Shown: positions 1,163 through 60,672, counted from the stretch's first letter. The stretch is 64,000 nucleotides of DNA from an uncultured Pirellulales bacterium (GCA_964482555.1 CAYZXY010000001.1:165030-229029), one strand, 5' to 3'. The notes: generated by a model from the sequence alone, not told the origin. A program made the numbers and translations.

Positions 1163-1266
1163 TATACTTGATCCGATGGCAAATACCCCTTTTGTCAGAA
1201 TGTAATTACGTGCGGATAAAAACATGCGCCCGGACCTGCCAGGAGCTTTCTGCTTAATTGGGTATA
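1163..1266 (+). mobile_element. 105-bp TA-flanked repeat (family 1), copy A
   Basis: TATACTTGATCCGATGGCAAATACCCCTTTTGTCAGAA...TTGGGTATA, matches the family consensus. Confidence 0.85.
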
Positions 1267-1357
1267 TGGCTGTTTTATAGATAATTATAGTCGGTGAGGC
1301 GAGAGAAGATAAGGAAAAAATAGAAAGCGTTGCCGGATGCCGTTGGAATCGGGCAAG

Positions 1358-1386
1358 ACCATCCCCTCACTTGACGCAAGGGGCTG
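1358..1386 (+). repeat. ~30-bp REP-like hairpin (family 3), copy 1
   Basis: ACCATCCCCTCACTTGACGCAAGGGGCTG; near-identical to the reverse complement of 5953-5982. Confidence 0.65.
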
Positions 1387-1401
1387 TTGATATTTCTGAC
1401 A

Positions 1402-3540
1402 TTAAAGGTACAGAATCAAAGCGGTGGCGATGGTTACAACGAACATGGTAATCATGCCCACGAGCCCCAATGTGTCCTTAAGGGAAGAAGGGACGAAGGT
1501 GAAGGGTTTGTTGACCGTTTCCAGCGAGCGAATAACGGTCTGCTGCGGTCGGGAAAAATGGGCGTAAGGATTATGGCTGGGTGCAGCCGGCTGCGGTTCC
1601 GGCTCCGGTTCGAAATCCGTCTGGCTGCTGCCTTCCAGCTCATCCATAACCAGTTGCTCGTCTTCTGAGATCGGCTCCGGCTCCGGCTCCGATTCAGGTT
1701 CAGGTTCCAGTTCCGGCTCCGGCTCCGATTCAGGTTCAGGTTCCAGTTCCGGCTCCGGCTCCAGTTCCGGCTCCGGCGTTTCAGAGTCATCATTACTGCC
1801 GTCATAAATATCAGATACATCCATATCCTCTTCAGCATCATCAGAGATGACATCTTCCAGATTTGACAAAATCTGATCCAGGTTTTCATCCGTTTTTTCG
1901 GAATCTTCGAGTTCATCTTTTTGGGTAGCCGATGGTTCGGCGGCAGAGGTATCGGGCTCATCGGCGAGGGCGGCTGGTACGAGGTCTTCTTCGTTATCAC
2001 TGTCGCTATCCTGCACCGTTTCCGTCATTGCCGGCGTTTCAGCTTCAGTTTCTTCAATAGTGTCCCGCGGTTCCGGTGTCTCGGCCGATGCGGTTTCCTG
2101 CTGCGTCTCCGGGGCGCCCTCTAATTCCTTTTCCAGACCGGCCAGCAATGCATCCATGTCTTCCGCCTGTGCTTCATTCGATTCGTCACTATCGGATGAG
2201 ACATCAGCAGTTTCCGGTTCCGATGGAATCAGGTCATCCATCGCTGCATCATTTTCCGGGGCCGATACGCGGGATGACTGCGGTGCAATATCTTCGGGTT
2301 CCGACAAAAGAGCATTCGTCTGATCACCCTTTTCTTCAGCCGGCAAGGTGTCATGTAGCGCCTTGGGAGATTTCCCGGCATCCTCCGCAGCCGGGCTGTC
2401 CTTTGCTGCGGGCTCAATAGTGTCTTCAGTAAATGCGGCTTCGTTATACACAGCTTCCGACTCTTGTTCCATTTCCTGTCTGGCGAGCGTGTCGTCTATC
2501 GATTCTTCGTCAGACGTCTCCGGCAGCGCTGAGGTTGTTTCATTATCTTCGATTGCCAGAGTCGCTTCCGGCTCGTCTGATGCTTCGGCGGTTTGCTCCA
2601 GAAGATTTTCTGGTATAATCTCGTCGGTGACTTCTTCCGTAGAATCCGCTTGCGATTGTGATTCCTCCATCTGCGTTTCGCTGGCAGCGATGAGCTCATC
2701 AACGGAAGCATTATCCTCCGTCGGTTTTTCAGCTTCATCCGTCTCGACGGTCTCGACATCAGAAATCTCGGCTATTACAGCTTCCATCCCGCCTTCGACA
2801 ACCGCTGAATCTTCAGCTTCACTGCCGACAGCCTCACCATTGAGCTCTGCTGCCAGCCCCGTCAGCATATCATCGATATTGTCCGGAGCCTCTTCTGCAA
2901 CGTCCTGCTGCTTTTGATCTCCAGACTGCCGCGCCGATTCAGTACTATCAGAATTCTCATCCGCGTTATTCTCGCGCGAATACTGAGCAACATCTTCGAG
3001 TAATTCCGTCAGGTCCTCCAGAATATCATCTTCAATAATGCCTGTCTCATTGCCGTCTGCCATAGCTGCAACGTCATCCTGGTTATTAGACACATTATCA
3101 AATGTCGCCGTCGCTTGTTCGCTGACAGCTTCTTCGGGCTCAGTTTCTGATGGAGCTGACTCCTCCGCAAACGAACCGGATATCATGCTGATTTCCTGTT
3201 CCAGCGACGCCAGCGTATCGTCCACGTTTTCGGAGTTATTCAGGTCAACATTATTATGCCGCGGTTCCTCATCGCCTTGATCTTCGAATGGTTCCTCATC
3301 GGGACCCATTTCCAAATCAACCTTATCAAGGTTTTCCACCGCTTCCGCCAGCAGTGAATCGATGTTCGCTGGATCGGATATACCCGTATCAATATCATCG
3401 CCGCCGATTTCGGACAGGGCATCATCTTCCCCTTTGGTTTCCGGAGCGGAATTATCGGCCTGGTTTTCCGGCTGATTCGAGGAAGTCGATTCTGCGTTGT
3501 TTTCGTTGTCTTTTTCTTCTCTGTTGGATTCTTCCGACAT
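1402..3540 (-). CDS. Highly acidic, probably disordered protein with a C-terminal TM anchor
   Basis: 712-aa ORF, D/E-rich throughout, with a single hydrophobic tail ([22 protein letters not shown]). Confidence 0.85.
1673..1777. repeat. Coding hexamer array (Glu-Pro repeat) containing a 36-bp tandem duplication
   Basis: GGCTCCGGCTCCGATTCAGGTTCAGGTTCCAGTTCC twice (1679-1714, 1715-1750); encodes [12 protein letters not shown]. Confidence 0.9.
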
Positions 3541-3671
3541 AACTACGGTTGTCCTTGCACAGATTATTTACTTTTTGCGTTACGCCATGAAATATATTAC
3601 CTTAATCGGTCAAAGCGTTGTGTGAATCGACTTTTATGCGGATAAGTTGTGTTTTTTTTGCGAGAACAGGT

Positions 3672-4397
3672 ATGCAGGACGTACCACGATTTTATTGCTG
3701 TCCGATAACCTCGCCGCAAACCGGACTGCCGGACGACCAGGCTCATCATTTGTTGCATGTGCTGCGGTTAAAACCCGGCGACCGGGCGGAGGTGTTTGAC
3801 GGCCGGGGAACGCTGGCCCACGCTGTTGTGGCTGATATCGGCAAAAAGCAAGTAACGCTGGATGTGATCGAGATGTTGCCGCCGCAGCCGCCCCCCGGCC
3901 CGCGGCTGGTTATCGCCCCGGCGATTGCGAAGGGCGAACGCTTTGACTGGCTTATCGAAAAATGCACCGAACTGGGCGCCGCGGAGATATGGCCCGTTGT
4001 CTATCGGCGTTCCGTGAAAATGAGCAAAAATCCCCGTACCCGAAAACGCTGGCAGCATATCGCCGTCGCCGCCTGCAAACAAAGCCGACAACTTTTTCTG
4101 CCGCATATCGAAGAATCTTACAGTTTAGCAAATGCACTGAATAGGTTTGTTCAAGAATTACCAAATGCTGTGGTTTTGTATGGTGATCAGGCGGGAGAGC
4201 CTGTGCCCGACATTTTACCGAAGAAAACGTCGCATGTGATTGTTTTTATAGGACCCGAAGGCGGCATGACGGATGAGGAAAAATCTCTGTTGGATCAACG
4301 GCAAGCCCGACCGGTTCGGATAGCCGCCGCTGTTCTGCGGATCGAGACTGCCGCTGTTAGTTTTGCGGCTTTGCTGGCAGAAAAATATGGTCATTAA
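3672..4397 (+). CDS. rsmE: 16S rRNA m3U1498 methyltransferase RsmE
   Basis: HHLLHVLRLKPG, KGERFDWLIEKCTELG, IGPEGG, LRIETAA motifs; start placed at MQDVPRFY. Confidence 0.97.
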   Translation: MQDVPRFYCCPITSPQTGLPDDQAHHLLHVLRLKPGDRAEVFDGRGTLAHAVVADIGKKQVTLDVIEMLPPQPPPGPRLVIAPAIAKGERFDWLIEKCTELGAAEIWPVVYRRSVKMSKNPRTRKRWQHIAVAACKQSRQLFLPHIEESYSLANALNRFVQELPNAVVLYGDQAGEPVPDILPKKTSHVIVFIGPEGGMTDEEKSLLDQRQARPVRIAAAVLRIETAAVSFAALLAEKYGH

Positions 4398-4595
4398 ACT
4401 CCCGGCCGCCTGACGTTCGGCAATGATTATCCATATAAAACATACAATCTGAACAGTTCTATATAGAAAATACAAAAAAAATAGACTGCGGCAGCTAAAC
4501 CCTTGCCAATCAGCAATCATTAATATATAATCTAACCGAGGGAATAATTAGACCTAAATTACTTAAGAGTTAGAGTTATTTCAGGATGGGATGAA

Positions 4596-4721
4596 ATGGC
4601 AATACTCAGAGAAAACAGAGTAACAGTGAAATGGGACTTTTTCGTGGTTTTGAGTTGTGCCGGTCTGGCAACGGCCTTTCTCAGCATCGTCTATCTGTTA
4701 AAATATCTTGGCGAAATGTAG
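4596..4721 (+). CDS. Candidate 41-aa single-TM small protein
   Basis: Hand translation MAILRENRVTVKWDFFVVLSCAGLATAFLSIVYLLKYLGEM*; purine-rich AGGATGGGA upstream; below the ORF-track length cutoff. Confidence 0.5.
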   Translation: MAILRENRVTVKWDFFVVLSCAGLATAFLSIVYLLKYLGEM

Positions 4722-4789
4722 GCGATTTCAACTCAATGTCCTCATCACGGCAAATAACCGGATAACAGCTTCATTAAACTAATATGAGC

Positions 4790-5935: not shown

Positions 5936-5952
5936 ATTCTTGAACCATGCAG

Positions 5953-5985: not shown

Positions 5986-6090
5986 TATACTTGTTCCGAT
6001 TGCAAATACCCGTTTTGTCGGAACGTAATTATCTGCGGATAAAAAGCTTACGCCCGGCTCTGGCGGGAGCTTTCTACCCAATTGGGTATA
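5986..6090 (+). mobile_element. 105-bp repeat family 1, copy B
   Basis: TATACTTGTTCCGATTGCAAATACCCGTTTTGTCGGAACG...TACCCAATTGGGTATA. Confidence 0.92.
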
Positions 6091-15154: not shown

Positions 15155-15436
15155 CTATATCGTCTCAATATCGTAATCTATTAAAACGCATTGAGGCGTT
15201 TTCTGTATAAAATTGACGATCTCCATCAGTGCCGACTGCACAAACCGGCTGTCATTGGCCACCATCGAGACCCCCAGGACCGAGGTCCGAATACTATCCT
15301 GGTGCTCGACTTCCGCGATGGAGACATTAAACTTATTGCTGATGCGGTCCTTCAGGCTCTTTATCACTCGCCGCTTGTTTTTCAGGTTCATGGCATCAAA
15401 CACACTCACCCGCACTTGCAACACACCCACTATCAT
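15155..15436 (-). CDS. DUF503 (YlxP-like) protein
   Basis: MIVGVLQV..LKNKRRVIKSLKDRISNKFNVSIAEV; usual position in the infB-rbfA operon. Confidence 0.92.
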   Translation of the reverse strand: MIVGVLQVRVSVFDAMNLKNKRRVIKSLKDRISNKFNVSIAEVEHQDSIRTSVLGVSMVANDSRFVQSALMEIVNFIQKTPQCVLIDYDIETI

Positions 15437-15521
15437 CCTTTACCGCTTTCAAAAAAACGCTTCTCCTTCTGTCAGAAACTATCTCCATCCCGATTCCGCC
15501 GGGCTCGTATTCGCGGGCATC

Positions 15522-15624
15522 TATACTCGTTCCGATTGAAAATACCCGTTTTTCGGAACGTAATTATATGCGGATAAAAGCTTACGCCCGGCCCTGCCGG
15601 GAGCTTTCTAACCAATTGGGTATA
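15522..15624 (+). mobile_element. 105-bp repeat family 1, copy D
   Basis: Near-consensus copy between infB and the DUF503 gene. Confidence 0.93.
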
Positions 15625-24598: not shown

Positions 24599-25048
24599 GT
24601 TTGTTAATAAATAATTAAAATAATAATTTATCTTTCAAACTGGCCACTCTATCATCGGCCATGTTCTTATGTCGTTAATACAAAAAACTGTTTTAAATAA
24701 AGGGAATCTACGAGGTTAGTATCACTCTCCAGATTGAGGCAGGTTTCTGTAAATTGCTGGAATTTTCACGTTCCGCTAAGGGATCCTGTCTCATAGCAAC
24801 ATAATTATAGAAGATAACTACAATTACGCTCGGCCTCGACGGAAAGTCTCATACCCCTGCGGGCTAAACATTTCTCTCATTTATAAGCCGAAGTATTATA
24901 CAATATGATCTGCATCTTTAAAAGCCATTTTCAGGTAAAATATCAAAGAACCTGTTAAAATATGTAACGAGGATTTGTAAACCATTACTATAAAACAACT
25001 TATTGAAACAAAACGCTTGCGGGCCGTCCTGACAATACTTGCCGGACC

Positions 25049-27464: not shown

Positions 27465-27567
27465 TATACCCAATCGGGTAAAAACTCCTGGCAGGGCCAA
27501 ATGTAAACGTTTTATCCGCACACAATTATGATCCAACAAAACGGAAAATTCTATTGGAACGAGTACA
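27465..27567 (-). mobile_element. 105-bp repeat family 1, copy E (reverse orientation)
   Basis: Plus strand TATACCCAATCGGGTA...ATTGGAACGAGTACA. Confidence 0.88.
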
Positions 27568-31010: not shown

Positions 31011-31571
31011 ATGGGCCGAATCATACCACCTCAACCCGTCAAACTGATCGTCGGCATGTTCTGCCGGGAGCCGAATCTGTTCAAGGTCGCGGAACATTAT
31101 ATGGAGTCTCTCTGGGGGCCGATCGACATTCACAGCAAATTATACCCTTTCGACAAGACACATTACTATGACAAAGAAATGGGGCCGAACCTGGTGCGTA
31201 AATTCATCAGCTTCACTGCATTGATCGACCCGGGCGGCCTCGCTCGCATCAAGCACCAGACGAACGAGCTTGAAGATACTATTGCCGGCTCCGCTGAAGG
31301 CCGGACGTTGAGCGTCCGCCGGCCGATCAACCTCGACTCCGGCTACATCGAACCCAGCAAACTCGTCCTGGCGACCACAAAAAACTTCTCGCACCGCATC
31401 TACATCGGCGACCGCATCTATGCCGAAGTGACGCTGCATTACGCCAATGGCTGGAAGAGCTGGCCTTTTACCTTTCCCGATTACGGGTCGGGAGCGTATA
31501 ATGATTTCCTGGACGCCGCCCGCGAAAAACTGCTGGAACAATTAAAGGGTGCCTCTAATAATTGCTTTTGA
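31011..31571 (+). CDS. DUF4416 family protein
   Basis: FDKTHYYDKEMG, IKHQTNELE, RPINLDSGYI, KNFSHRIYIG, WPFTFPDY; last codons lie inside repeat family 2. Confidence 0.9.
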   Translation: MGRIIPPQPVKLIVGMFCREPNLFKVAEHYMESLWGPIDIHSKLYPFDKTHYYDKEMGPNLVRKFISFTALIDPGGLARIKHQTNELEDTIAGSAEGRTLSVRRPINLDSGYIEPSKLVLATTKNFSHRIYIGDRIYAEVTLHYANGWKSWPFTFPDYGSGAYNDFLDAAREKLLEQLKGASNNCF

Positions 31572-31707
31572 GGCAAAAGCGAAGATTTTTTTCGTCTGAA
31601 AAGAAATGCAAAACCGGGCATATGGGTGACTATTCACGGTTTTTCATGACGAAGGCCAGAGGGAAAAATGATCGCTTGCAGCCCAATATGAATTTTTAGA
31701 GGTGACC
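31547..31707 (+). mobile_element. ~160-bp MITE-like element (family 2), copy 1
   Basis: Imperfect TIR GGGTGCCTCTAA / TTAGAGGTGACC, TAAA on both flanks; body repeated at 45084-45222. Confidence 0.8.
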
Positions 31708-31731
31708 TAAAGTCAGATCAAAAAGGATCAT

Positions 31732-41581: not shown

Positions 41582-41686
41582 TATACTCGTTCCGATTAAA
41601 ATTTCCCGTTTCGCCTAAGTGTAACTATGTGCGGGCAAAGCCTTTAAACCCGGCCCTGGCGGGAGTTTTCTAACCCATTGGGTATA
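41582..41686 (+). mobile_element. 105-bp repeat family 1, copy K
   Basis: TATACTCGTTCCGATTAAAATTTCCCG...CCCATTGGGTATA. Confidence 0.88.
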
Positions 41687-45050: not shown

Positions 45051-45222
45051 TATACTCGTTCCGAGGGAAATGGTCCGTTTTATTTTGAGGCGAAAGCGAA
45101 GTTTTTTTCGTCTGACAAGAAATGCAAAACCGGGCATATGGGTGAATATTCACGGTTTTTCATGACGAAGGCCAGAGGGAAAAAGATCGCTTGCAGCCCA
45201 AAATGAATTTTTAGAGGTGCCC
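45051..45222 (+). mobile_element. Chimeric element: family-1 left end fused to family-2 body and right end
   Basis: TATACTCGTTCCGAGGGAAATGGTCCGTTTT then TTTTGAGGCGAAAGCG...TTAGAGGTGCCC. Confidence 0.8.
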
Positions 45223-45254
45223 TTTAATGAAAACTGACCGCAGGCAGGTTTGAG

Positions 45255-46742
45255 TTAATGATACACTTTGCGACGGCGCGCAGGAGGGATATCCATCAGA
45301 TTGCGGTATTTGGCAACGGTCCGGCGGGCGAGCGTCAGGCCGCGTTTGTCGAGTTCGGCGACGAGCTCGTCATCGTTGAAGGGCTTGTGCTTGTTTTCGT
45401 TGTCGATGATTTCCTGCAGCTTGGCCTTGACCGCGTCCCAGCTGACACTTTCGCCGTTGGCGGTCTCGGTACCGCCGCTGAAAAAATAACGCAGTGGGTA
45501 TATGCCGATCGGGGTTTGCAGATATTTCCCCGAAACCGCACGCGAGACCGTCCCGACATGAATCCCTAACTCCTCCGCCACATCCACCATCGGCAGCGGC
45601 TTGAGGTACATCGGACCATTATCGAAAAACTCACGCTGGCTCCGAAGCACATGATTGACCACACGCAGCAGCGTCGCCTTACGCTGTTCGACAGATTCGA
45701 TGAGCCATTTCGCCGACCGAACGCTGTTCTGCAGGAATTCCTTTGTATCGCCGACGACCTTTTTATCCTTGAGCATTTTGCCGTACATGGCGTTGATCCG
45801 CAACATGGGGTTGCTGCCGTCGCTGAGCCGGGCGGTATAAATGTCATCATCCTCATCATACTCGACGATTACATCGGGTACGATATAGGTTGCGTTATGC
45901 GAACCGACCTGCATGCCCGGACGCGGGTCCAGCCGCGATATCTTCTTGATCCCGTCCTGAATCTCGGCGATAGACCGGCCGGTCTTCTTGGCGATCTGGG
46001 GGAAGCGATTCATTTCAATGTCTTTGAGATGATTGCGGACCAGTTCAATCTCCAGCTCCACTCCCTCGCCAGCGGCTTCCAGCTGAATCAGCAGACATTC
46101 CGCCAGGTTCCGCGCCCCCACCCCGACAGGTTCAAGCGTCTGGATCATGCGCAATGCCGCTTCCATCTCCATCAGCGACACCGGCTGCTGAAACTTCTCG
46201 CAAAGCGACGCCAGCTCAATATGCAGATAACCCGTTTCTTCTATATATTCGATGATCTTCGCCCCGACCGCCTTGATTTTCGGTTCCGCTTCGATAAATG
46301 CCCACTGATCCATCAGGTACTCATTCAAAGACTGATCCGGAGCGGCGGTATTTTGCATCGCTTCCAGCTTACCATCACGCTCACCGGATGTACTGCGCGA
46401 CGGCACATAAGACGAACGGCTCCAGTAATCTTCATAATCGTCGCCGATATTCTCCATCCGGCGGAAATCTTCCTTTCTGCTCATGTCGTCCCGAATGAGC
46501 AGGCTCTGCTCATCGTCATTTATCTCAATGACCTTCTCCCCATTCCCCTCAGAACCGCTTTGCTCCGGACCTTCGTAGCTTTGCTCTTCCATCTCGAGCA
46601 CCGGATTCGAAAGCATTTCCTGTTCGATGCGTTCCTGCAGAGCCATGATCGGCAGCTGCAGAATCTCCATCGATTGAATCATACGCGGAGCCAGCGCCAT
46701 CCGCTGGTCCATCTTCATTTGTTGTGATACATCTAATCGCAT
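45255..46742 (-). CDS. rpoN: RNA polymerase sigma-54 factor
   Basis: QSMEILQLP, LEPVGVGARNLAECLLIQL, HVGTVSRAV, ARRTVAKYR RpoN box. Confidence 0.98.
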   Translation of the reverse strand: MRLDVSQQMKMDQRMALAPRMIQSMEILQLPIMALQERIEQEMLSNPVLEMEEQSYEGPEQSGSEGNGEKVIEINDDEQSLLIRDDMSRKEDFRRMENIGDDYEDYWSRSSYVPSRSTSGERDGKLEAMQNTAAPDQSLNEYLMDQWAFIEAEPKIKAVGAKIIEYIEETGYLHIELASLCEKFQQPVSLMEMEAALRMIQTLEPVGVGARNLAECLLIQLEAAGEGVELEIELVRNHLKDIEMNRFPQIAKKTGRSIAEIQDGIKKISRLDPRPGMQVGSHNATYIVPDVIVEYDEDDDIYTARLSDGSNPMLRINAMYGKMLKDKKVVGDTKEFLQNSVRSAKWLIESVEQRKATLLRVVNHVLRSQREFFDNGPMYLKPLPMVDVAEELGIHVGTVSRAVSGKYLQTPIGIYPLRYFFSGGTETANGESVSWDAVKAKLQEIIDNENKHKPFNDDELVAELDKRGLTLARRTVAKYRNLMDIPPARRRKVYH

Positions 46743-46755: not shown

Positions 46756-46860
46756 TATACTCGTTCCGTTTGCAATGCCCCGTTTTGTCGGAACATAATT
46801 ATTTGCGGATAAAAAGCTTACTCCCGGCTTGGCCTGACGCTTTCTACCCAATCAGGTCTA
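46756..46860 (+). mobile_element. 105-bp repeat family 1, copy M
   Basis: TATACTCGTTCCGTTTGCAATGCCCCGTTTTGTCGGAAC...TACCCAATCAGGTCTA; starts 13 bp from the rpoN start codon. Confidence 0.88.
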
Positions 46861-48099: not shown

Positions 48100-48203
48100 T
48101 ATGCTCGTTCCGATGGAAAATACCCTTTTGTCGGAACGTAATTCTCTGCGGATAAAAAGCTTACGCCCGGCCCTGCCGGGAGCTTTTTAACCATTTGGGT
48201 ATA
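48100..48203 (+). mobile_element. 105-bp repeat family 1, copy N1
   Basis: Near-consensus copy; shares its terminal TA with N2. Confidence 0.92.
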
Positions 48204-51771: not shown

Positions 51772-54294
51772 TTATTGCGGCAGGCCCGACGCTCCGGAAC
51801 CGGCAGGTCCGCCCTGAGCGACTGCGCCGTCGGGTTTATCCGCACTCTTGAGCTTGACTTTAAAACGTAAACGAAACCAGTAATCGTTCTTCTCGATAAC
51901 GGGCTGCTGATCGGGACCATAGACAATCTCGCCGTTGGCATTCACTTTGTAAATTTCACTAACCGGTTCAAACGTCAACGGATCGATCAAAGGATCAATT
52001 TGATTGATATCTTTACGGGTACGGGTCGGCCCCACGGTGCCAAAGCCGCCGCCCCGGCCGCCGGTACCGGCTAAACGGGTTGCCGCGGGATCGACCGGCT
52101 TGGAGATGCCGACACCCGAGGGTTGATTCTCGGTTTTTTGTATGGTGGAAACCCACCCGTTTTCCGTATAATCGAAATAGTCACGGATGTTCTCCGGCTC
52201 ATTGAAAATCTTAAACGGTAATTTCGCGGCCTGCTCGCTGCCCTGCTTTTGTTCATCCGTACGCGGCACGTTGACAGGCCCCACGGCCGGCGCGTTTTGC
52301 CCGCCTCCAGCGGCGGCATCACTGTTCACGTTCCGGTTTTTAAGCTGCTGATAAAGTTCTTTGTCACTTTGTCCCAGATAGAGTAGCCGCTGGAAAAAGC
52401 CCCATTTACTGCGGTCCAGCCCCACTTCCGGCGGCATCAAAAAACCCAGACCGTCCGGTTTTTCCGGATTAAAACCATGATGCGGCGTACTGCCTTCAAT
52501 AATCACGACAAAGCCGGGCGTTGTTTCCGTTTGTTCTGCTGGGCCTGGCTTTTTCGAGGAAGGAGCCGCCTGATAGCCGCCATAACCACCACCATAACCC
52601 CCGCCTCCGGGCCCCATCGGACCGCCCGGCATCATATCCGGCATCATCTCGCCATAGCCTTCCATCATCGGATCAAAACCTTCGCCATAGCCGCCCGCCG
52701 GTGAGGTGGTCGTACGACTCTGGGTCTTGAACGTGGTCAACTCATCGAAGGATTTATTCAAATCGTCCGCATAGACAATCTGAATACTGCTAATAAAGAC
52801 CTGCTTACGCTGATGACGGTCCGGAAACTGGTTTATAATACCCTGCTTATCCCCTTGCTTGAACAAATCATACAGCTTACTCTGATCGGAATTGTATTTT
52901 TCGTTAGGCAGTTTCGTGAAAACCGTCTTATATAAAGACGGCACCACAACCCGGTCCGAATACAAATCGGCAATTTTCTGGAATTCCGTCTTGTCCTGCT
53001 GGATTTTCTGCTCCATCTCGTCATATTGCGAACGGTTACGATTGACAACCGTTTCATAACGCTTGATTTCCGATATGCTGCCTTTGGCGGAATTGATATT
53101 GCTCCGCAGAGCATTGGCGTTAATAAAACTCAACAGCCCCGCCAGCATAAACACCGCCGCCGCCCCGATAAAGAATGGACGCTTTTTGCGCCAGGCCGTC
53201 TGCCGGATTATCTCACGCGGCAGCAGATTGCTGTTAATTGTGCCCTCCCCCACGCCCTGAAGGGCCAGACCATACGCTACCGCCATACTCGGCAGATTCG
53301 CCGTAAACTTGGTCATCGAAATGTCACTCGTCAATTCCAGCGAATCAAAACCATCCAGCCGTTTCACCGGCAACGACAGGCTCTGCTGGAGAAACTTGAT
53401 CAGCCCAGGCAGCTTCATCGCATTACCCAGAGCAATCACTTCACGGAACCGAACATCACGATTGCCGCTGCTGTAAAAACCCAGCGACCGCTGAATTTCC
53501 GCCGCCAGATCGGCAAAGACCGAACGCATCGCCTGAAAAATCTGCCGGGCATACTTACTCGTACTGGCCGTACGCTTGATGGCTTCCGCTTTGGTAAAAC
53601 TCAGCTTGAAGGCCTTCTGAACCGCAGCCGTGAACTGATTCCCGCCGACCGGAATGCTCCGCTGCCATACCTTCAAACCGTCCATTATAATCAGATCCGT
53701 GTTTTCCGCTCCGATATCCAGGACAATCACCGCTTCCTGCGGATTATTCTGCAACTGCTGCTGATCGTAACGCAAAAAATTATACAAAGCCATCGGCGCC
53801 ATCTGCACCATGTCTATCCCGCAGCCCACACGACTGAACGGCGCTAAAGCCCGATGGACCAGATCGCGTTTGATGGCGAATATCCCCAACTCAATATCAG
53901 GATTGTCCGGAGTCTGAAACGTCTGCCAGTCCCACTCCACATCATTCATATTAAACGGAATCTGCTGCTGGGCTTCCAGCGGCACCAGAGCCGGTATTCG
54001 CTTGGTTTCCACCGGCGGCAGCTTGACGAAACGAGCGAAACTGTTCTGCCCCGACACCGAAACAACCACATTGCAACCGGCGGTATCATGCTCATCCAAA
54101 AATTTATCCAGCGCCCTGGTCAACAACCCCATTCGCTCTTCCAATGTGATTTCCGGCTGGGACAAAATCTTCTCATGCTCGATCACCTCGAAGTCGAGAA
54201 CCTCCACCCCGTCTTCGGTGACGCCAAGCTTGATAGCCTTCAATGTACAATTGCCGACATCTATGCCCCATGCCATTTTGGCGGATTTAGCCAT
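51772..54294 (-). CDS. pilM: Type IV pilus assembly protein PilM with a fused PilN-like C-terminal part
   Basis: WGIDVG..LKAIKL, EAQQQIPF, VLDIGAENTDL, IPVGGNQFT..QK, EIQRSLGFY; then INSNLLP, a TM and a periplasmic region. Confidence 0.9.
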   Translation of the reverse strand: MAKSAKMAWGIDVGNCTLKAIKLGVTEDGVEVLDFEVIEHEKILSQPEITLEERMGLLTRALDKFLDEHDTAGCNVVVSVSGQNSFARFVKLPPVETKRIPALVPLEAQQQIPFNMNDVEWDWQTFQTPDNPDIELGIFAIKRDLVHRALAPFSRVGCGIDMVQMAPMALYNFLRYDQQQLQNNPQEAVIVLDIGAENTDLIIMDGLKVWQRSIPVGGNQFTAAVQKAFKLSFTKAEAIKRTASTSKYARQIFQAMRSVFADLAAEIQRSLGFYSSGNRDVRFREVIALGNAMKLPGLIKFLQQSLSLPVKRLDGFDSLELTSDISMTKFTANLPSMAVAYGLALQGVGEGTINSNLLPREIIRQTAWRKKRPFFIGAAAVFMLAGLLSFINANALRSNINSAKGSISEIKRYETVVNRNRSQYDEMEQKIQQDKTEFQKIADLYSDRVVVPSLYKTVFTKLPNEKYNSDQSKLYDLFKQGDKQGIINQFPDRHQRKQVFISSIQIVYADDLNKSFDELTTFKTQSRTTTSPAGGYGEGFDPMMEGYGEMMPDMMPGGPMGPGGGGYGGGYGGYQAAPSSKKPGPAEQTETTPGFVVIIEGSTPHHGFNPEKPDGLGFLMPPEVGLDRSKWGFFQRLLYLGQSDKELYQQLKNRNVNSDAAAGGGQNAPAVGPVNVPRTDEQKQGSEQAAKLPFKIFNEPENIRDYFDYTENGWVSTIQKTENQPSGVGISKPVDPAATRLAGTGGRGGGFGTVGPTRTRKDINQIDPLIDPLTFEPVSEIYKVNANGEIVYGPDQQPVIEKNDYWFRLRFKVKLKSADKPDGAVAQGGPAGSGASGLPQ

Positions 54295-54761
54295 TTTTCT
54301 TTATTCCTGTCAAAATATCATAAAAAAATCAGATTTTAGCGCTATGCAACACTACTATTTTAACCCATCTGCAAAAAATTTAAATGTTTAATTTGTTTCA
54401 GTGCGGACAACGGGGGGATATTTCGCAATATATCTGGGCAAATTTATCGTGGAAAATATCTTGTCTTGCCCGTCCAAAAAACCTCGTTGCCTGTTTTCCT
54501 TCCCACCTCTCCTCGATTACTGGAAAACAGGTATAGACAAACCACTCTCCTGCAAATATATTATCACACTCCGGGGGGCATTATGCAAGAGAAAAGACCG
54601 ATTTCCTGCCCGAAACCAGCAAAACAGCTATAACCAACCGGGCAGCAAGCTCCAGACAAAACCACACATAACCGTTTTCTTTATAACTAGTTACAGATGA
54701 AGAAAACGGGGAAACGCCATCAGAATCCATGTAAACGAGGGGAGATCAATCGAAGATATGG

Positions 54762-55479: not shown

Positions 55480-57210
55480 TCAGGCGCCTTTGCCCAGCGC
55501 CCGCCGAATCTCACCTATCAACTGATCGACTTTAAATGGTTTATACAAAACGGCATTCAATCCTTCCCGGTTCGCTCGGACGATCGAATGATTCGGGTCG
55601 TACCCAAATCCCGTCATCAGAATCACGGGAATCTCACTATCCAAGTCACGTGCCGTAGCAAAAATTTCATAACCATTTGCAAATGGCAGCTTTATGTCAG
55701 ATATCACCAGATGGTACTGCTGTTTGCCCAGCAGCGCCTTGGCCTCACGACCATCGCGGGCGGCATCCACAATACACCCATATTTCTGCACCACATCCGT
55801 GATCGTCTGACGAATGAACTCCTCATCATCCACCAAAAGAATCTGTTTGCCCGCCAGCAGCGGGTCGATCTCAACATCCGAAATGGACTGCACACCGAAA
55901 ATCCCTTTGGGTTGATCTTGTAAATCTTTCATCGACCGCTTGATGCTCACAACATTATCCACGATACCCTGCAGCCGATGTCGGAGATCGTCATGACCGA
56001 TATAATCCTCCATTATCAACGATGCCTGAGTCAAAATCGCATTCAGCGGCTCAGACACTTGACGGTTGAGATTGTCCGCCGCCTGGCCCGTCGTCTGATA
56101 GCGCTCCACCACCATCAAATCCAGTATATTCATGGCTATGGCAATATATCGGCCGAAAATCTCCGCCATCTGACGATCGTCCTCATCGAAGGCCTGATCC
56201 TGGGCGCTCTCGACATTCAACGTCCCCACCACCTTGTCATGCAGCAGCAGAGGCACCGTCAGACAGCACTTCGCGTCCGCCATCCCGGCTATATACCGCG
56301 GATCGGCCGACAGGCTATTGCAGATATAACTACGCCCCGTCGCCGCCACATAACCGGTGATGCCGTTGTTTTCAATATTGGCAAAAAGCTCCGCATGGTT
56401 ATCCATCGGCACCCCCGCTCCAAAAAGCACCTCCAACTGGTTATTCCGGCGGTTGAGCAGACGGACCACGAAATTATCGAAATGCAGCAGATCTCTGGCA
56501 TATCGCACAATCTTGTCCTGCAAAAGATTAATACGCTCTTCGACAACCATATTACTGAGCGTCTCCGCCTCGAGCCGCACCAGTTCACGGCCGGCCTTGT
56601 CAATGGCGTCTATCCGCTGCTGCAGCTTACGGCTGGCGGTTTCATCCCAGACGACCGTGGCCACATGGCTGATGCGATTATGCTCATCGAGCATGGGATT
56701 CACGATCATCTCAAAATATCGCCCGGTCTTCTCATCTGTCAGAGAATACTTTCGCGGACGCAGCGGCACATTCTGAGGCAGGGTTTCCAGATCGCGGGCA
56801 AAAGACGCAAACGCCCCGCGGCTCCGGGAGAAAATCCCCTCTTTTACCGCTTCGGAAAAGCCTTCCATCTTGAAATTCGACCAGAGCGCCGCACCGTTCT
56901 CATTCACCACGCAAACGCCCTCACCGACCGTGTTTAAAATCGACATGGCTTTTTCCGCCACCACCGCCCTTTCCAGCGGCAGAAAATCTGCCGTGCCCGA
57001 TATGACGGCATCGAAATCCTGCTCCTGCAGGGAAACGATCGCCTTTTCCACGGAATCAGCCGTTAATCCGGTCAAATTTTGTGATTCGGCTATTAACGCT
57101 TCAAAAACGCGAGAAGGACAATTGGCCCCCTTGCTCTTTAAAATCAAAACCTTGAGTTTTTCCGTATCCGATTTTTCCGCGATTGCCGGTTTGATATCAT
57201 TATTGCACAT
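55480..57210 (-). CDS. PAS-GAF-(degenerate HisKA)-REC signalling protein
   Basis: PAS-like and GAF regions (VPLLLHDKVVGTLNVES); C-terminal REC LLVDDE..VISDIKLP..MTGFG..KPF; no HATPase domain. Confidence 0.88.
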   Translation of the reverse strand: MCNNDIKPAIAEKSDTEKLKVLILKSKGANCPSRVFEALIAESQNLTGLTADSVEKAIVSLQEQDFDAVISGTADFLPLERAVVAEKAMSILNTVGEGVCVVNENGAALWSNFKMEGFSEAVKEGIFSRSRGAFASFARDLETLPQNVPLRPRKYSLTDEKTGRYFEMIVNPMLDEHNRISHVATVVWDETASRKLQQRIDAIDKAGRELVRLEAETLSNMVVEERINLLQDKIVRYARDLLHFDNFVVRLLNRRNNQLEVLFGAGVPMDNHAELFANIENNGITGYVAATGRSYICNSLSADPRYIAGMADAKCCLTVPLLLHDKVVGTLNVESAQDQAFDEDDRQMAEIFGRYIAIAMNILDLMVVERYQTTGQAADNLNRQVSEPLNAILTQASLIMEDYIGHDDLRHRLQGIVDNVVSIKRSMKDLQDQPKGIFGVQSISDVEIDPLLAGKQILLVDDEEFIRQTITDVVQKYGCIVDAARDGREAKALLGKQQYHLVISDIKLPFANGYEIFATARDLDSEIPVILMTGFGYDPNHSIVRANREGLNAVLYKPFKVDQLIGEIRRALGKGA

Positions 57211-57231
57211 AGCTATCTCGTCACGATTTAT

Positions 57232-57336
57232 TATACTGCTTCCGAATTAAGTTTTGCCGTTTTTTCAAACCATAATCACTTACACGGAAAACAGTTAGGT
57301 GTGGCTTTACCGGAAGCTCCCTGACCGATGGGGTAT
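57232..57336 (+). mobile_element. 105-bp repeat family 1, copy P (diverged)
   Basis: TATACTGCTTCCGAATT...CCGATGGGTATA, 105 bp; shares variants with copy S. Confidence 0.6.
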
Positions 57337-57420
57337 AATTCCGGCTGAGCCGGGTTAAGCAATATTTTTCTATATTAAAGTATAACAGATTAAAATCGGT
57401 TTGGGAATAGGAATATATCT

Positions 57421-57476
57421 GAAAGTTAACTTTCGCGTTTTTTTTTGATCACTCTGGCGTTCCGCAGGGCCTTTAA
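57421..57476 (+). repeat. ~55-bp motif (family 4), copy 1
   Basis: GAAAGTTAACTTTC palindrome, T-run, TGGCGTTCCGCAGGGCCTTT; repeated at 60518. Confidence 0.7.
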
Positions 57477-57493
57477 AACCCCTTGATATTCTT

Positions 57494-57597
57494 TATACGC
57501 ATTCCGATGGCAACGCCCCGTTTTGCCTAAACGTAATTATGGGCGGAGAAAAAGCTTTCGCCCGGCTTTGCCCGAGCTTTATACCCAATTGGGTATA
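57494..57597 (+). mobile_element. 105-bp repeat family 1, copy Q
   Basis: TATACGCATTCCGATGG...TACCCAATTGGGTATA. Confidence 0.88.
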
Positions 57598-57916
57598 GGT
57601 ATTTAAAAAAATGGGAAATAAGTGATTCCCTCTGTCGAGGGGGGATATGACTATACGACGCAATCGGCTTTGCGATTTGCCTGCCGTGTTTGAGCCAGGC
57701 TTACCTCCCAGGCTGCAAGCATAAAAAAACCCAATCGTCCTGGAAACATGCTCATGTTTTCCTGAGAATCCGATTGGGCGCTCGCTCTCATTCTCCCAGG
57801 TTGTCTGGGTTATTATATGCACAAAGCCATGCCGCTCAGCCTGTCCCGTATAAACCGGAACGATACCCATCTAGGAACGAAAGGAGGTGTATCAAATCTT
57901 TAAATGGGTATTGTTT

Positions 57917-58918
57917 TTAAAACCTCGGTTCCTGACCCACATTATCCTGAACCCGGGGATGAGCGTTTTCATACTCTTTCTTCATCCGGTCGGTCGTCAG
58001 ATGGGTGTAGATCTGGGTCGTACTGAGCGACTGATGTCCGAGCAGTTCCTGTACCACACGCAGGTCGGCTCCGTTGTTGAGCATGTGCGTGGCGAAACTG
58101 TGCCGCAGGGTGTGCGGGCTGATTTTCGGGTCCAAACCGGCCTGGAGGAGATACTTATCCAGCTTTCTGCGAACCGAGCGGGTGCTCAGTCGCTGACCGT
58201 GTTTGTTGATAAACAGGGCCTGCTGATCGAAATCCTGCTTTCGGGGATCGGCGTCCCGGAAAGTCAGGTAACGCTGGATGCATTGCAGCGCCGAAGCGCC
58301 AATTGGCGAGATCCGTTCTTTTTTGCCTTTTCCGCGGAGATGCAGAACCTCTCCCAGAAAATCGACGTCATTCAAATTCAAACCCACCAGTTCGCTGACA
58401 CGCAAACCGCTGCTGTACAGCGTCTCGATAATGGCACGGTCGCGAGCGCCCAGCATCGTATTGGTGTCCGGGCTTTCCAGCAGCCGCTTGACATGATCAA
58501 TCTCCAGGCAGCGCGGAAGGCGCTTTTCCTGCTTGGGCGTACGGATCGAGCTGACGGGACTGCTTTCTATCCGTCCCCGACGAATCAGGAACTTGTAGAA
58601 ACTGCGCAGCGTCGCCAGTTTGCGGGCGGTGGTGGCTTTGGAATAACCCTGCTCGTTCAAATAAGCCAGATACGCGCGAATCAGCGAGACATCGGCCTGG
58701 ACGATACGGGCATTCACTTCAACGGCTACGGCGGTTTGCGGCGTCGCAGCGCCCGCCATCCCCGCGTCCTGCATGTCACTGGCCGGTTCATCTTGTTGCG
58801 AGATAAAACCAGCAAACTGAATCAGGTCCGCCTGGTAACACTTGGTAGTGTACGGGGAAAAGTGCTTTTCATATTTTAAATAATCCAGAAATTCTTTAAT
58901 AATGGGATAATCTTGCAT
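57917..58918 (-). CDS. xerC: Tyrosine recombinase XerC
   Basis: ARKLATLRSFYKFL, SSGLRVSEL, GKGKKER, SPHTLRHSFATH, LGHQSLSTTQIYTH; start MQDYP after AGGA. Confidence 0.93.
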   Translation of the reverse strand: MQDYPIIKEFLDYLKYEKHFSPYTTKCYQADLIQFAGFISQQDEPASDMQDAGMAGAATPQTAVAVEVNARIVQADVSLIRAYLAYLNEQGYSKATTARKLATLRSFYKFLIRRGRIESSPVSSIRTPKQEKRLPRCLEIDHVKRLLESPDTNTMLGARDRAIIETLYSSGLRVSELVGLNLNDVDFLGEVLHLRGKGKKERISPIGASALQCIQRYLTFRDADPRKQDFDQQALFINKHGQRLSTRSVRRKLDKYLLQAGLDPKISPHTLRHSFATHMLNNGADLRVVQELLGHQSLSTTQIYTHLTTDRMKKEYENAHPRVQDNVGQEPRF

Positions 58919-58983
58919 TGTCCTACCACAATCGGCGAAGGTGAACATTTCCCTGGCATGTAGGGGTTTAATCATTAGCCCGC

Positions 58984-59235
58984 GAGCGGCTGTTCAGGGT
59001 CTGTGAACATACACTCTACCTTGGGACGACCTTACACGGCCGCCTGGAAATTGCCGCTATCCTCTCCGGATACGCAACGCAATTTCTGAACAACATGATG
59101 TCATATCTGTGAGACCGGAGCGAGAAGTGAACTTATCGCTGCGCCAGTCTTTAACTAATTCAATTCAGACGGCTGCGTAAACCTGTTTAACAACTCCCTG
59201 ATTAAACCACGGTTCCGTCTGTCGGGTCTCCGCCC
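58984..59235 (-). ncRNA. Candidate ~250-nt multi-hairpin RNA between a small gene and xerC (unassigned)
   Basis: Four tandem hairpins plus a possible closing stem; see findings. Confidence 0.45.
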
Positions 59236-59246
59236 ATTTTATAAAT

Positions 59247-59522
59247 TTACTCTGTATCGCATTCATCCAGCGAGTTCAACCCGGAAGACGTCGAATGCGT
59301 TTGAGGACAGAGGTACTTATCTGCTTCTTCAACCAGCTGCTTACTGAGCTGAAAGCTCAATACCGCGGCGTCAAACCAGTCAAAATGATTGCCTTGATCG
59401 TTGGCCAGATCAACGAAAGAATCCAGCAGGTCTTCCTCCGCGCCTGATTCATAACGAAACACAAAGCGTTCTTCTTCTTTTACAAGTGTCAGTTCTTTGA
59501 TGCTGCTGCCCATCATGACCAT
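59247..59522 (-). CDS. Small acidic hypothetical protein
   Basis: 91-aa ORF, protein-like composition (IKELTLVKEEERFVFRYESG..FDWFDAAVLSFQL), same strand as its neighbours. Confidence 0.75.
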   Translation of the reverse strand: MVMMGSSIKELTLVKEEERFVFRYESGAEEDLLDSFVDLANDQGNHFDWFDAAVLSFQLSKQLVEEADKYLCPQTHSTSSGLNSLDECDTE

Positions 59523-59551
59523 CCTGTCAGGGCGATGCCCTGGGGGTATGT

Positions 59552-59670
59552 TCTACTCGTTCCGATTGAAAACTCTCGTTTTACTGGAACGTAATTATGT
59601 GCGTTAAAAAACATTTATACTGTTTCCGATTGAGTTTTCGCTTACGCGGCTCTGCCGAAGCTTTCTAAAC
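59552..59670 (+). mobile_element. Family-1 rearranged copy R with a second internal left end
   Basis: TCTACTCGTTCCGATTG...GTGCG, then TATACTGTTTCCGATTG at 59616, then GCTTACGCGGCTCTGCCGAAGCTTTCT. Confidence 0.72.
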
Positions 59671-59677
59671 GGGGCAC

Positions 59678-60451
59678 CTATTCGATCCGCTCCTTTTCCC
59701 GTGCCAGCAGCTCGCCTGTCATTTCATGACAGACAAAGCGTATATAGTTCCGCCGGGTCGTCCAGATACGCCAGGTGTAAGGCGAGTCCTTGGCACCGCG
59801 CTGACGACTGAACTCCTGAATGCGACGGCGCGTCTCCTCGTTGCCGGCGTCAAATATCCTCACGACCATGGCCCGCGGTTTGATCGGCGCGCCGGCCGGC
59901 AGCTCCATCGGACTGGCGGCTTTGGATATCTCCGCCGGATTGATGTTAACCAGCGATCGGCCCTCGATAACCTTATCGTCCCGCAGGTACATCTGCAGGG
60001 TCATGCCCATCTGCGGCGGCGGATAAGGGTCGTAACGGGTCACCGTTCCGACGATGACACCCTCGACATCCAGCGTCTCCGCCAGCAGAATGACCTCATC
60101 GGGACTCTCAACGTTCTGCATCCCCAGATCGCTCAGAGCCGCCAGCACACGGTTGACCGGCATGACATGCAGCTGCCCCTTGACCTGCTGCAATTCGGCA
60201 TAAAGCTCGTCCGTCACCGCCATGATGTCCAGGTCCTCCGAACCGGACAGGTTCCGGAACGGAACGACAGCAATGCTGTAAGCCTCGGGATATGGACTGG
60301 TATAGACACGCTCGACGCTCTGGCCGCATCCTGACAAAAACAGAATCATCGACAACGCCATCAAACATACCGTGCCCGCCCAGACTTTTCGCCGTCGGCC
60401 GCAATAACTACCGGTATTTGCTCTGACTCTATTCACTTGTCGCCCATCCAT
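59678..60451 (-). CDS. Lipoprotein (CsgG/TolB-N-like alpha/beta fold)
   Basis: Lipobox LSG-C; SIAVVPFRNLSG, VIVGTVTRYDPY. Confidence 0.75.
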   Translation of the reverse strand: MDGRQVNRVRANTGSYCGRRRKVWAGTVCLMALSMILFLSGCGQSVERVYTSPYPEAYSIAVVPFRNLSGSEDLDIMAVTDELYAELQQVKGQLHVMPVNRVLAALSDLGMQNVESPDEVILLAETLDVEGVIVGTVTRYDPYPPPQMGMTLQMYLRDDKVIEGRSLVNINPAEISKAASPMELPAGAPIKPRAMVVRIFDAGNEETRRRIQEFSRQRGAKDSPYTWRIWTTRRNYIRFVCHEMTGELLAREKERIE

Positions 60452-60517
60452 GGTTTCATTCGTTCGTCTTATCCGGGCTCATCCGTGAACCCGCTATATT
60501 ATTTATCGGCATTTGCC

Positions 60518-60568
60518 GAAGTTAACTTTCGCTTTTTTTGTGAGCGTTTTGGCGTTCCGCAGGCCTTT
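60518..60568 (+). repeat. ~55-bp motif (family 4), copy 2
   Basis: GAAGTTAACTTTCGCTTTTTTTG..TGGCGTTCCGCAGGCCTTT; abuts copy S. Confidence 0.7.
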
Positions 60569-60672
60569 TATACTGCCTCCGATGAAAATCACCCGTTTTC
60601 TCCAACCATAACTGCTTTTATGAAAACGATCAGGCGTGACCCTGCCAGAAGCTTTCTTCCCGATGGGGTATA
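60569..60672 (+). mobile_element. 105-bp repeat family 1, copy S (diverged)
   Basis: TATACTGCCTCCGATGAAAATCACCCGTTTT...CCCGATGGGGTATA. Confidence 0.72.

Follow-up and report, generated by a model that had tools for sequence, protein, structure and literature searches.

The repeat of approximately 105 bp that recurs throughout the 64-kb window (the whole stretch of DNA analysed) is supported, by the sequence comparisons below, as a miniature transposon (MITE) left by an IS630-type insertion sequence (IS); taken as a whole, the best explanation, which we consider highly probable, is an IS630-derived MITE with a replication-polar orientation. Whilst the element is ordinary in kind, its polarity along each replication arm is the exception, uniform direction along an arm being not expected for cut-and-paste elements. 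What is new is a replication-linked polarity at the scale of chromosome arms, a pattern seen directly in the copies and for which we infer a cause. The MITE reading given in the initial annotation therefore stands as regards the kind of element, but does not cover this strong orientation bias.

A profile search (nhmmer, with 13 window copies as the basis of the profile) returned 25 element loci in the window, 21 on the + strand and four on the − strand, recovering every one of the approximately 23 copies listed earlier and adding two degenerate examples (24767-24862, +, and 54628-54725, −). Matches to the consensus halves are confined to the listed places, with 0 expected in shuffles. Three loci are fragments (12808 on the − strand, 39490 and 45051), the remaining listed loci being full or near-full length. 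Their description as intergenic is borne out by placement between long ORFs, the three copies that overlap ORFs doing so only with ones that are short and doubtful (15191-15577, 54401-54700 and 57493-57870). The copy at 45051, described as a chimera, is indeed a fusion, but its partner belongs to a different, unrelated repeat family and the element part is a 33-nt 5′ fragment. The loci, with nhmmer scores in bits, are:

1163..1266, +, full-length copy, 92.7 bits, model 1-106
5986..6090, +, full-length copy, subfamily A, 116.2 bits
9925..10029, +, full-length copy, subfamily B, convergent spacer, 97.2 bits
12808..12860, −, 5′ half fragment, model 2-54, 37.3 bits
15522..15624, +, full-length copy, shortly 3′ of infB, 108.1 bits
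24767..24862, +, degenerate copy, 17.4 bits, E=1.4e-4
27465..27567, −, full-length copy, reverse orientation, 69.4 bits
27614..27718, +, degenerate full-length copy, 21.5 bits
30850..30953, +, full-length copy, flanked by two + strand genes, 107.9 bits
33730..33834, +, full-length copy, subfamily B, 90.6 bits
34755..34859, +, full-length copy, 91.7 bits
35837..35941, +, full-length copy, 105.5 bits
39253..39359, +, full-length copy, divergent spacer, 99.0 bits
39490..39524, +, 5′ fragment, remainder deleted, 13.0 bits, model 3-35
41582..41686, +, full-length copy, subfamily B-like, convergent spacer, 94.3 bits
45051..45083, +, 33-nt 5′ fragment joined to a member of the second repeat family (to 45222), 16.4 bits and sequence
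46756..46860, +, full-length copy, start codon 13 nt away, 95.1 bits
48100..48203, +, full-length copy, first of tandem pair, 106.7 bits
48202..48308, +, full-length copy, second of tandem pair, 51.7 bits
54628..54725, −, degenerate copy, 25.2 bits
55354..55458, −, full-length copy, reverse orientation, 83.0 bits
57232..57337, +, diverged full-length copy, 32.3 bits
57494..57597, +, full-length copy, 92.7 bits
59552..59668, +, composite copy: 5′ part, second 5′ end (TATACTGTTTCCGATTGAGTTTTCGC), 3′ part, 46.7 bits, with model 3-92 spread over 115 nt
60569..60672, +, diverged full-length copy, 44.6 bits

Across the 3.6-Mb genome, nhmmer finds 807 matches on most contigs, 565 of them full length; together they make up 2.1 % of the sequence and 16 % of the intergenic DNA. 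With a copy present in 39 % of those spacers that measure 100 bp or more, the suggestion that a large share of intergenic gaps is occupied is upheld. All four gene contexts contain copies, some copies directly adjoin start or stop codons, and many within the genome are identical or near-identical to each other. Related elements of 105 bp, alike at their ends but not in their interiors, are found in 7-10 genera of the family, with the conservation of ends and of the exact 105-bp length seen in five genera; copy numbers by genus are about 800, about 136 and 0-13. The earlier notion of a lineage-specific family is therefore not sustained, as the element is family-wide but patchy, occurring in several genera of one family. 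Such hugely unequal numbers between genera, together with the many near-identical copies, mean that these are not fixed orthologous cis-elements.

The 105 bp include a TA at each end, with a 101-bp core (TAC...GGGTA) lying between the duplicated TAs. Both ends are imperfect inverted repeats of approximately 27 bp, of the form TATAC-N10/11-TGA(A/G)AAT(N)CCCG, and in subfamily B the 5′ end and the reverse-complemented 3′ end match at 19 of 27 positions, with AATTCCCG paired to CGGGAATT in the fold. There is no ORF, the element being too short for protein coding, and in common with bacterial MITEs it is under 300 bp and non-coding, with terminal inverted repeats and many dispersed copies. The three palindromic modules described previously hold for subfamily A, for which the predicted fold comprises four hairpins, with a hairpin and T-run on the reverse strand; they do not hold for subfamily B, in which stems are broken, or for the versions from other genera, which like subfamily B retain just the inverted ends and the terminal TACCC(W)TTGGGTA hairpin. 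Left and right hairpins are unlike in sequence, hairpins are not conserved across subfamilies or genera, predicted folding energies of the two single strands are nearly equal, and the RNAalifold structure, at −3 kcal/mol, has hardly any covariation. The comparison with Rfam that had been proposed matched no described family to the element at or above the gathering score, the sole match in the window being one tRNA-Lys, and no plasmid match was found for the element.

TA is the only sequence common to the insertion targets, although T is found at the 3 nt preceding the element in 53-66 % of copies and the 3′ flank is weakly A-rich. Three nested insertions, together with one interruption of a gene, allowed empty sites to be reconstructed, each with a single TA. 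In the former (C19:50574-50782, C58:9814-10019 and C85:5950-6157), removal of 103 bp exactly restores the host consensus, with one TA kept in each; in the latter, a copy lies inside a DDE_3 remnant (C13:68134), and excision leaving one TA reopens a frame (...QKRLHVFYLPSYSPSWNPDEY...) that is colinear with IS630 transposase. Within the tandem pair at 48100 and 48202, the terminal TA (48202-48203) is common to both copies. Duplication of a TA target on insertion is thereby supported, with the qualification that sequence alone cannot separate duplication from TA-adjacent insertion. No true orthologous empty site and no polymorphic insertion was recovered from metagenome contigs.

A transposase bounded by related ends, for which a search had been advised, is of the IS630 type and is intact or nearly intact in two related Sedimentisphaerales genomes, G014 and G023, with a further remnant in the present genome. 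G014 carries two identical 1111-bp IS copies, both flanked by TA, with a 354-aa ORF that harbours HTH_29/HTH_33 and DDE_3 domains and is 51 % identical to a RefSeq 'IS630 family transposase'. The IS ends are TATACTGTTCC... and TATACTCTTCC... in G014, and TATACTATTCTCAATTGAAAATG... and TATACTACCCATCATTGAGAATG... in G023. The remnant at C27:3495-3659 has 75 % identity to the C-terminus of the G023 transposase, and its stop codon is followed at once by AAACGGGAAAACTCAATCGTGAACAGTATA, which is the MITE 5′ end in reverse complement. Of 27 positions, MITE 5′ ends share 17-21 with IS ends and 3′ ends share 11-17 (shuffled mean 8-9, maximum 15), whilst the figure for a different IS630 type, from genome G017, is only 8-13; for the outer 10 nt of the 3′ end (CCAATTGGGTA), the IS ends seen contain no equivalent. 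In the present assembly (97 % complete) there is no intact cognate transposase, only fragments (C27:3495-3659, C40:14143-14346, C13:68028-68150 and C113:4311-4463), and the family may therefore be stranded, or driven by an unassembled copy. Mobilisation in trans, as originally suggested, is favoured by every check that had been proposed, including the TA reconstructions, the IS630-type ends and the unequal copy numbers. By analogy with the family, an HTH and DDE_3 transposase supplied in trans would bind both ends, excise the element and paste it into a TA, which would be duplicated. The amplification, to about 800 copies in intergenic DNA that is AT-rich, involved at least two subfamilies (A and B).

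With regard to orientation, when each copy is compared with the regional majority of the other copies 1.5-30 kb away, the two coincide 74 % of the time (n=410, p=1e-23), and this agreement is 72-76 % in ++, −−, convergent and divergent gene contexts alike. Adjacent copies lie on the same strand in 68 % of cases, an effect that lasts to lag 12; gene strand concordance, by contrast, falls to 50 % by lag 8-12. Orientation is tied to gene-strand-corrected GC3 skew (Fisher p=5e-8) and, with replication direction taken from GC skew only, the TATACT...GGGTATA strand lies on the strand rich in C, presumed to be the lagging one, for about 75-80 % of copies. Genes display no strand bias relative to GC skew in this genome (49 %), and the two dnaA homologues are not at an obvious polarity switch. 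Polarity is independent of subfamily and of divergence class (range 71-77 %, with 71 % at <4 % divergence and 77 % at >25 %), and neighbouring copies are no more similar than random pairs. In G014, which represents a second genus, neighbouring copies have the same orientation 74 % of the time (p=3e-6) and orientation follows the sign of the skew in 45 of 49 copies (about 92 %, p=8e-10); its full-length IS630-type copies, a very small sample, have no clear polarity. An unrelated second MITE family in the present genome, with a 4-bp AT-rich target duplication, is likewise polar, copies siding with the regional majority 39 times out of 47 (p=5.5e-6).

Amongst known systems, the IS630-Spn1-associated MITE RUP of Streptococcus pneumoniae (Oggioni & Claverys 1999, reviewed in PMC2229807) is similarly intergenic and non-coding, at about 107 bp and >100 copies, with TA targets (PMC2229807), ends resembling those of IS630-family IS, and copies within IS transposase genes, as at C13:68134 here. 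It belongs to another phylum and has no sequence similarity to the present element, which is about 8-fold more numerous, has two subfamilies and chimeras, lacks an intact partner IS in the assembly, and is strongly replication-strand polar, a property not found reported for RUP in the literature examined. Correia/NEMIS elements of Neisseria likewise have TA termini and duplication, at 107-155 bp with inverted ends of ~24-26 bp, and exist as hundreds of intergenic copies that are frequently co-transcribed (PMC2229807); they too lack sequence similarity, and for the present element a parent IS is identifiable, whilst neither an IHF site nor an outward promoter was identified in it. Related autonomous IS630 elements (Tc1/mariner superfamily; 1.1 kb, HTH and DDE_3 transposase) are TA-flanked and have terminal sequence in common with the MITE, which differs in having no ORF and in carrying at its 3′ terminus a palindrome, TACCC(W)TTGGGTA, not present in IS ends. 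REP/REPIN (RAYT) sequences are also short, abundant, hairpin-forming intergenic repeats, but they are GC-rich palindromes of 20-40 bp that have a conserved tetranucleotide at the terminus and produce no target duplication (PMC2817692, PMC3733652), unlike the IS630-like inverted ends and TA duplication seen here. A survey of full-length IS describes orientation bias that is, as here, linked to GC skew along arms and independent of gene orientation, with IS630 biased in few chromosomes and in mixed direction (Gomez et al. 2014, PMC3971601); what differs here is an IS630-type MITE and a second MITE family at 75-92 % polarity in a planctomycete lineage.

Several other explanations bear on the polarity or on the element itself. 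Still with an IS630-type MITE, both orientations could be inserted and one, relative to the fork, then removed, possibly because of a polar replication obstacle, strand-specific hairpin processing, or an outward promoter provoking head-on conflicts. This is a minority possibility that we consider rather unlikely: polarity does track GC skew in two genera, a general filter would act on the second, unrelated MITE without invoking two fork-sensing transposases, and the G014 full-length copies lack clear polarity (albeit in that very small sample), but the bias is alike in the youngest and oldest copies, the two strands fold with near-equal energies, the two MITE families have their best terminator-like hairpins on opposite strands, and promoter-like and terminator-like sites are not enriched. 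An asymmetric target motif, T-rich 5′ of the element and uneven between replication strands, would be in keeping with the flanks described above; it is nevertheless improbable, as such a preference combined with AT skews of a few percent cannot yield 10:1, and the second MITE family is polar despite its different target.

It is more improbable still that the element moves as ssDNA by means of an HUH tyrosine transposase (RayT/REPIN or IS200/IS605-type PATE), inserting beside TA on the lagging-strand template without duplication, although such single-strand insertion would directly explain the polarity. Ton-Hoang and colleagues are said to have described, in 2010, a replication-linked orientation bias for IS200/IS605. 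The strong replication-strand polarity resembles that of IS200/IS605 (PMC3971601), subfamily A has its four hairpins, and insertion beside TA with a terminal TA leaves the same sequence as TA duplication; set against this, the ends match IS630-type DDE elements, including the remnant in the same genome, hairpins vary between subfamilies and genera whilst the inverted ends alone are conserved, left and right hairpins differ, unlike IS200/IS605 ends, and a 2-nt target is too short for IS608-type guide-based recognition. Membership of the REP/REPIN class was rejected on account of the TA duplication and because the REP-like CACGGGC...GCCCGTG hairpins of this genome (a stretch inside valS) are unrelated to the element. 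An IS200/IS605-derived PATE was also rejected, given inverted ends, unlike and unconserved hairpins, and a TA-only target at which duplication and adjacent insertion look alike; the PATE-like orientation bias relative to replication is a behavioural resemblance and not evidence of membership. Least credible of all is a conserved, non-mobile cis-regulatory element or structured RNA (terminator, promoter or sRNA) at fixed positions: the constant length across genera, the hairpin and T-run of subfamily A and the copies adjoining start or stop codons would suit it, but there is no Rfam match, covariation is almost absent, subfamily B stems are broken, nested and tandem insertions are found, and copies number from 0 to 800 among genera and occupy all four gene contexts.

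For the IS630-derived MITE, we would place at even chances the proposition that orientation is fixed at insertion by replication-fork asymmetry. With little or mixed orientation bias reported for IS630 elements (PMC3971601), fork-coupled insertion is without an established basis in that family. As the unrelated second MITE family is also polar, polarity would be a property at the level of the host, and it is tentatively proposed, at somewhat less than even chances, that at least two unrelated DDE MITE families of this Sedimentisphaerales lineage inserted in a fixed orientation to the moving fork through a host-level coupling to lagging-strand synthesis. Clamp-rich lagging strands, which have been proposed for Firmicutes IS, are an example of a route by which such coupling might operate. 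If true, with polarity of up to 92 %, MITE orientation would constitute a built-in replichore marker for unfinished genomes.

The 105-bp element had been reported at 23 intergenic sites of the window, and sequence relatedness is visible at 23/23 of these starts; both halves of the consensus match the listed sites only, with 0 matches expected in shuffles. An nhmmer profile of the element, built from 13 window copies, returns 25 distinct loci, comprising those 23 and two degenerate extras:

window 24767-24862, degenerate copy, additional to the original list, found with the nhmmer profile
window 54628-54725, degenerate copy, additional to the original list, found with the nhmmer profile

All 25 loci lie between long ORFs, as called by a longest-ORF heuristic, in keeping with the intergenic location first claimed. 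Across the whole genome assembly (G000; 3.6 Mb, 154 contigs, 97% complete), in which the window corresponds to C1:165030-229029, there are 807 matches, full length in 565 cases. The element makes up 2.1% of the genome; its share rises to 16% in the DNA that separates called genes, where 39% of all spacers measuring 100 bp or more contain a copy. Because many contigs start or end within a copy, the repeat can be seen to break up the assembly into its 154 contigs. The window itself is present in four microbial-mat metagenome runs, the contigs of which confirm the assembly. Amongst its genes, that at 51772-54294 (- strand) has a product of 840 aa; the N-terminal half of this protein matches both the PilM family and, at a score under the equivalog cut-off, the Amuc_1101-family PilM-like pilus complex protein.

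The boundaries of the element are sharp, with the opening TATA and closing GTATA occurring in ~100% of good copies, and its flanks are AT-rich. There are two main subfamilies, A (n=153) and B (n=112), as well as chimeras; divergence within a subfamily is ~13%, and identical sets contain up to 10 copies. The three palindromic modules described in the initial annotation hold for subfamily A, which forms four hairpins as single-stranded DNA (z = -5.4), but not for subfamily B, where the first two hairpins are broken and long-range pairing of AATTCCCG/CGGGAATT takes their place. This pairing is the inner portion of an imperfect ~27-bp terminal inverted repeat of the form TATAC-N10/11-TGA(A/G)AAT(N)CCCG. 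At Rfam gathering thresholds the window yields one tRNA only, and the element has no Rfam family. A conserved RNA structure was rejected, as RNAalifold applied to 19 copies returns -3 kcal/mol with almost no covariation, and so was action as a promoter or terminator, for which scans of the element with consensus sites give no excess over shuffles.

With regard to distribution, diverged copies are present in 10 of the 24 other family genomes sampled (E <= 0.001) and in one genome of another family, and under stricter filters a match is retained in 8 of the 201 genomes searched across the order. This order-wide search (201 genomes) returned no closed genome carrying the element, and a plasmid collection gave no match. 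The element had been put forward as a lineage-specific MITE; its MITE nature stands, whereas its occurrence is better described as family-wide but patchy across one family. As copy number ranges from 0 to ~800 per genome, the copies are not fixed orthologous cis-elements. The length is exactly 105 bp in five genera, represented by G000 and four other genomes (G014, G003, G015 and G012), and these copies have common ends (TATACT... and ...CATACCC(W)TTGGGTATA) and differing interiors. Conserved ends combined with free interiors are what one would predict for transposase-binding sites, and the exact length may reflect a need to keep the two ends at a set spacing or helical phase.

A Pfam DDE_3 search over 25 genomes of the family reveals IS630-type genes in 12, with two fragments only in G000. 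The insertion sequence of G014 is 1111 bp long, TA-flanked and present as two identical copies; its product of 354 aa contains HTH_29/HTH_33 and DDE_3, and is 51% identical to a RefSeq 'IS630 family transposase'. Its ends are TATACTGTTCCTGAATGAAT... and, as reverse complement, TATACTCTTCCAACATGAGAATGTCC, and those of a related IS in another genome, G023, are TATACTATTCTCAATTGAAAATGTCTG and TATACTACCCATCATTGAGAATGTCCG. Transposase remnants in G000, and a window copy that bears on them, are as follows:

contig C27, 3495-3659, transposase C-terminal remnant, last 53-55 residues, 75% identical to G023
contig C40, 14143-14346, transposase N-terminal fragment
window 59552-59668, composite copy with a ~63-nt 5' part, then a second 5' end TATACTGTTTCCGATTGAGTTTTCGC, then a 3' part

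The stop codon of the C27 remnant directly abuts AAACGGGAAAACTCAATCGTGAACAGTATA, which is the MITE 5' end in reverse complement, and the TATACTGTTTCCGATTGAGTTTTCGC of the composite copy is the variant nearest to the end of this remnant. Compared with these IS ends over 27 positions, the 5' ends of the MITE agree at 17-21 and its 3' ends at 11-17; shuffles average 8-9 and reach at most 15, and another IS630 type (from genome G017) gives 8-13. No intact partner transposase is present in the G000 assembly (97% complete). Paired 5' and 3' half-matches lying 0.9-8 kb apart were rejected as a full-length parent, as what separates them is ordinary genes (sulfatase-like, HlyD-like, SDR and nitroreductase-like) and no transposases. 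At C43:706-2442, C5:48751-50359 and C15:7897-9317, same-orientation 5' and 3' halves bracket single ordinary genes (sulfatase-like, membrane proteins and HlyD-like); these brackets are probably a coincidence of abundant fragments.

Three copies are interrupted by another copy (C19:50574-50782, C58:9814-10019 and C85:5950-6157), and in all three, excising 103 bp to leave one TA regains the host consensus at exact length. An IS630-type (DDE_3) transposase remnant at C13:68028-68291 has its coding sequence split by a 105-bp copy at C13:68134; joining the flanks through a single TA reopens the frame, giving QKRLHVFYLPSYSPSWNPDEY, which runs colinear with the KKKIELFFLPPYSPEHNPDEY segment of an IS630-type transposase. 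Each of these reconstructed sites, nested or within the C13 remnant, has one TA, as the initial annotation had anticipated for an empty site. The tandem pair at window 48100/48202 has one TA common to both copies. For an orthologous empty site, no clean joint was found in the contigs of the four microbial-mat runs, which break at repeats. TA duplication and insertion beside a TA by an element carrying a terminal TA are inseparable by sequence, and it is the evidence on the parent IS that decides: because the parent is IS630-type, the TA is duplicated rather than the insertion being adjacent to it. From its end matches to IS630-type elements, the 105-bp element is therefore an IS630-family MITE with TA duplication, which sharpens the original MITE interpretation. 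RUP (PMC2229807) is an element of this very kind and is reported to hit transposase genes, a behaviour paralleled by the copy in the C13 remnant.

The orientation of the element is polar along regions sharing one GC-skew sign. Per-contig strand counts in G000 are strongly skewed (e.g. 30:2, 13:0 and 19:2), and adjacent copies are co-oriented in 68% of cases, with ~60% still evident at lag 12; gene strand concordance, by contrast, is down to 50% at lag 8-12. Copies follow the majority orientation of the others found at distances of 1.5-30 kb in 74% of cases (n=410, p=1e-23), and in 72-76% within each gene context (++, --, convergent and divergent). Gene direction was rejected as the cause, polarity being equal in all four contexts, as was local hopping or segmental duplication, adjacent copies being no more similar than random pairs. 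Using gene-strand-corrected GC3 skew, '+' copies constitute 72% where the top strand is C-rich and 38% where it is G-rich (Fisher p=5e-8). In the window, where the skew is -0.07, 21 of the 25 loci are on the + strand and 4 on the -. At ~18-24 kb of contig C6, a run of ten '+' copies is succeeded by mostly '-' ones, and the change coincides exactly with that of the skew from negative to positive; an origin, a terminus or an inversion breakpoint could lie at this switch, near 20 kb. Polarity is uniform over divergence classes (71-77%) and in both subfamilies. In G014 (model R2, 129 loci counted), the strand is the same for 74% of adjacent pairs (p=3e-6) and for 75% of all within-contig pairs, and in twenty sampled 20-kb regions the TATACT strand is the C-rich one for 45/49 copies (p=8e-10). 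As G014 follows the same skew rule, the pattern is replicated in a second genus.

A second MITE-like family is also represented in the window:

window 31547-31707, second-family copy, with target duplication TAAA at 31543-31546 and 31708-31711
window 45051-45222, chimera with the second family

Its members are ~161 bp long with inverted ends, GGGTGCCTCTAA.../...TTAGAGGTGCCC, start with a hairpin plus T-run and duplicate a 4-bp AT-rich target (TAAA, TATA, TTAA, AATA). The 58 copies in G000 (~92% identity) are unrelated to the 105-bp element, and their orientation is that of its regional majority in 39/47 cases (p=5.5e-6). A third family, of REP-like short hairpins (CACGGGC..GCCCGTG / GCAGGCATCCTGCC), occurs in the valS stretch at C1:15400-15470 and in scattered flanks, e.g. 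'gcaggcagg' in the window 45248-45260 region. The valS-stretch hairpins were considered as relatives of the 105-bp element and rejected, being a different repeat.

By the general rule, the G-rich strand would presumably be the leading one in this phylum as well, and we read the direction of replication in G000 from skew alone. Relative to the direction that the MITE indicates, genes favour neither strand (49%). Two DnaA-family homologues are encoded:

contig C1, 104092-104571, - strand, Bac_DnaA homologue, 481-aa open frame
contig C27, 25971-26441, + strand, Bac_DnaA homologue, 481-aa open frame

Neither is situated at a clear skew or MITE-polarity switch, and dnaA was rejected as an origin marker.

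Insertion of IS630/Tc1-mariner elements is generally treated as orientation-neutral. Orientation biases of insertion sequences depend on family and phylum, and the beta clamp has been proposed as an oriented landmark (Gomez et al., PMC3971601); for IS630, few chromosomes in that survey were biased, and the direction was mixed (PMC3971601). Orientation is absent from the discussion in a 2024 review of prokaryotic MITEs. We infer a bias fixed at insertion with a host-fork cause: copy age makes no difference to it, which points to insertion as the moment when it is set, and the host replication fork, not one transposase, would be responsible because two MITE families share the polarity. Selection immediately after insertion is a less probable source of the polarity, and a strand-skewed asymmetric target a very unlikely one. 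Movement by an HUH single-strand mechanism fits the polarity, but is contradicted by the IS630-like ends of the element and by its hairpins, which are unequal and not conserved; the valS-stretch hairpins, moreover, are unrelated to it.

In kind, the 105-bp element is a textbook MITE and an addition to a known class, giving the planctomycetes a well-anchored case in which the IS630-type parent is identified. Its unexplained feature is the replication-linked polarity, common to a second MITE family and repeated in a second genus. The direction in which repeats point could be of use in orienting and ordering the contigs of metagenome-assembled genomes. Two unrelated MITE families co-oriented along replication arms, in young and old copies alike and in two genera, would offer a testable way into the coupling of DDE transposition to replication outside model bacteria.
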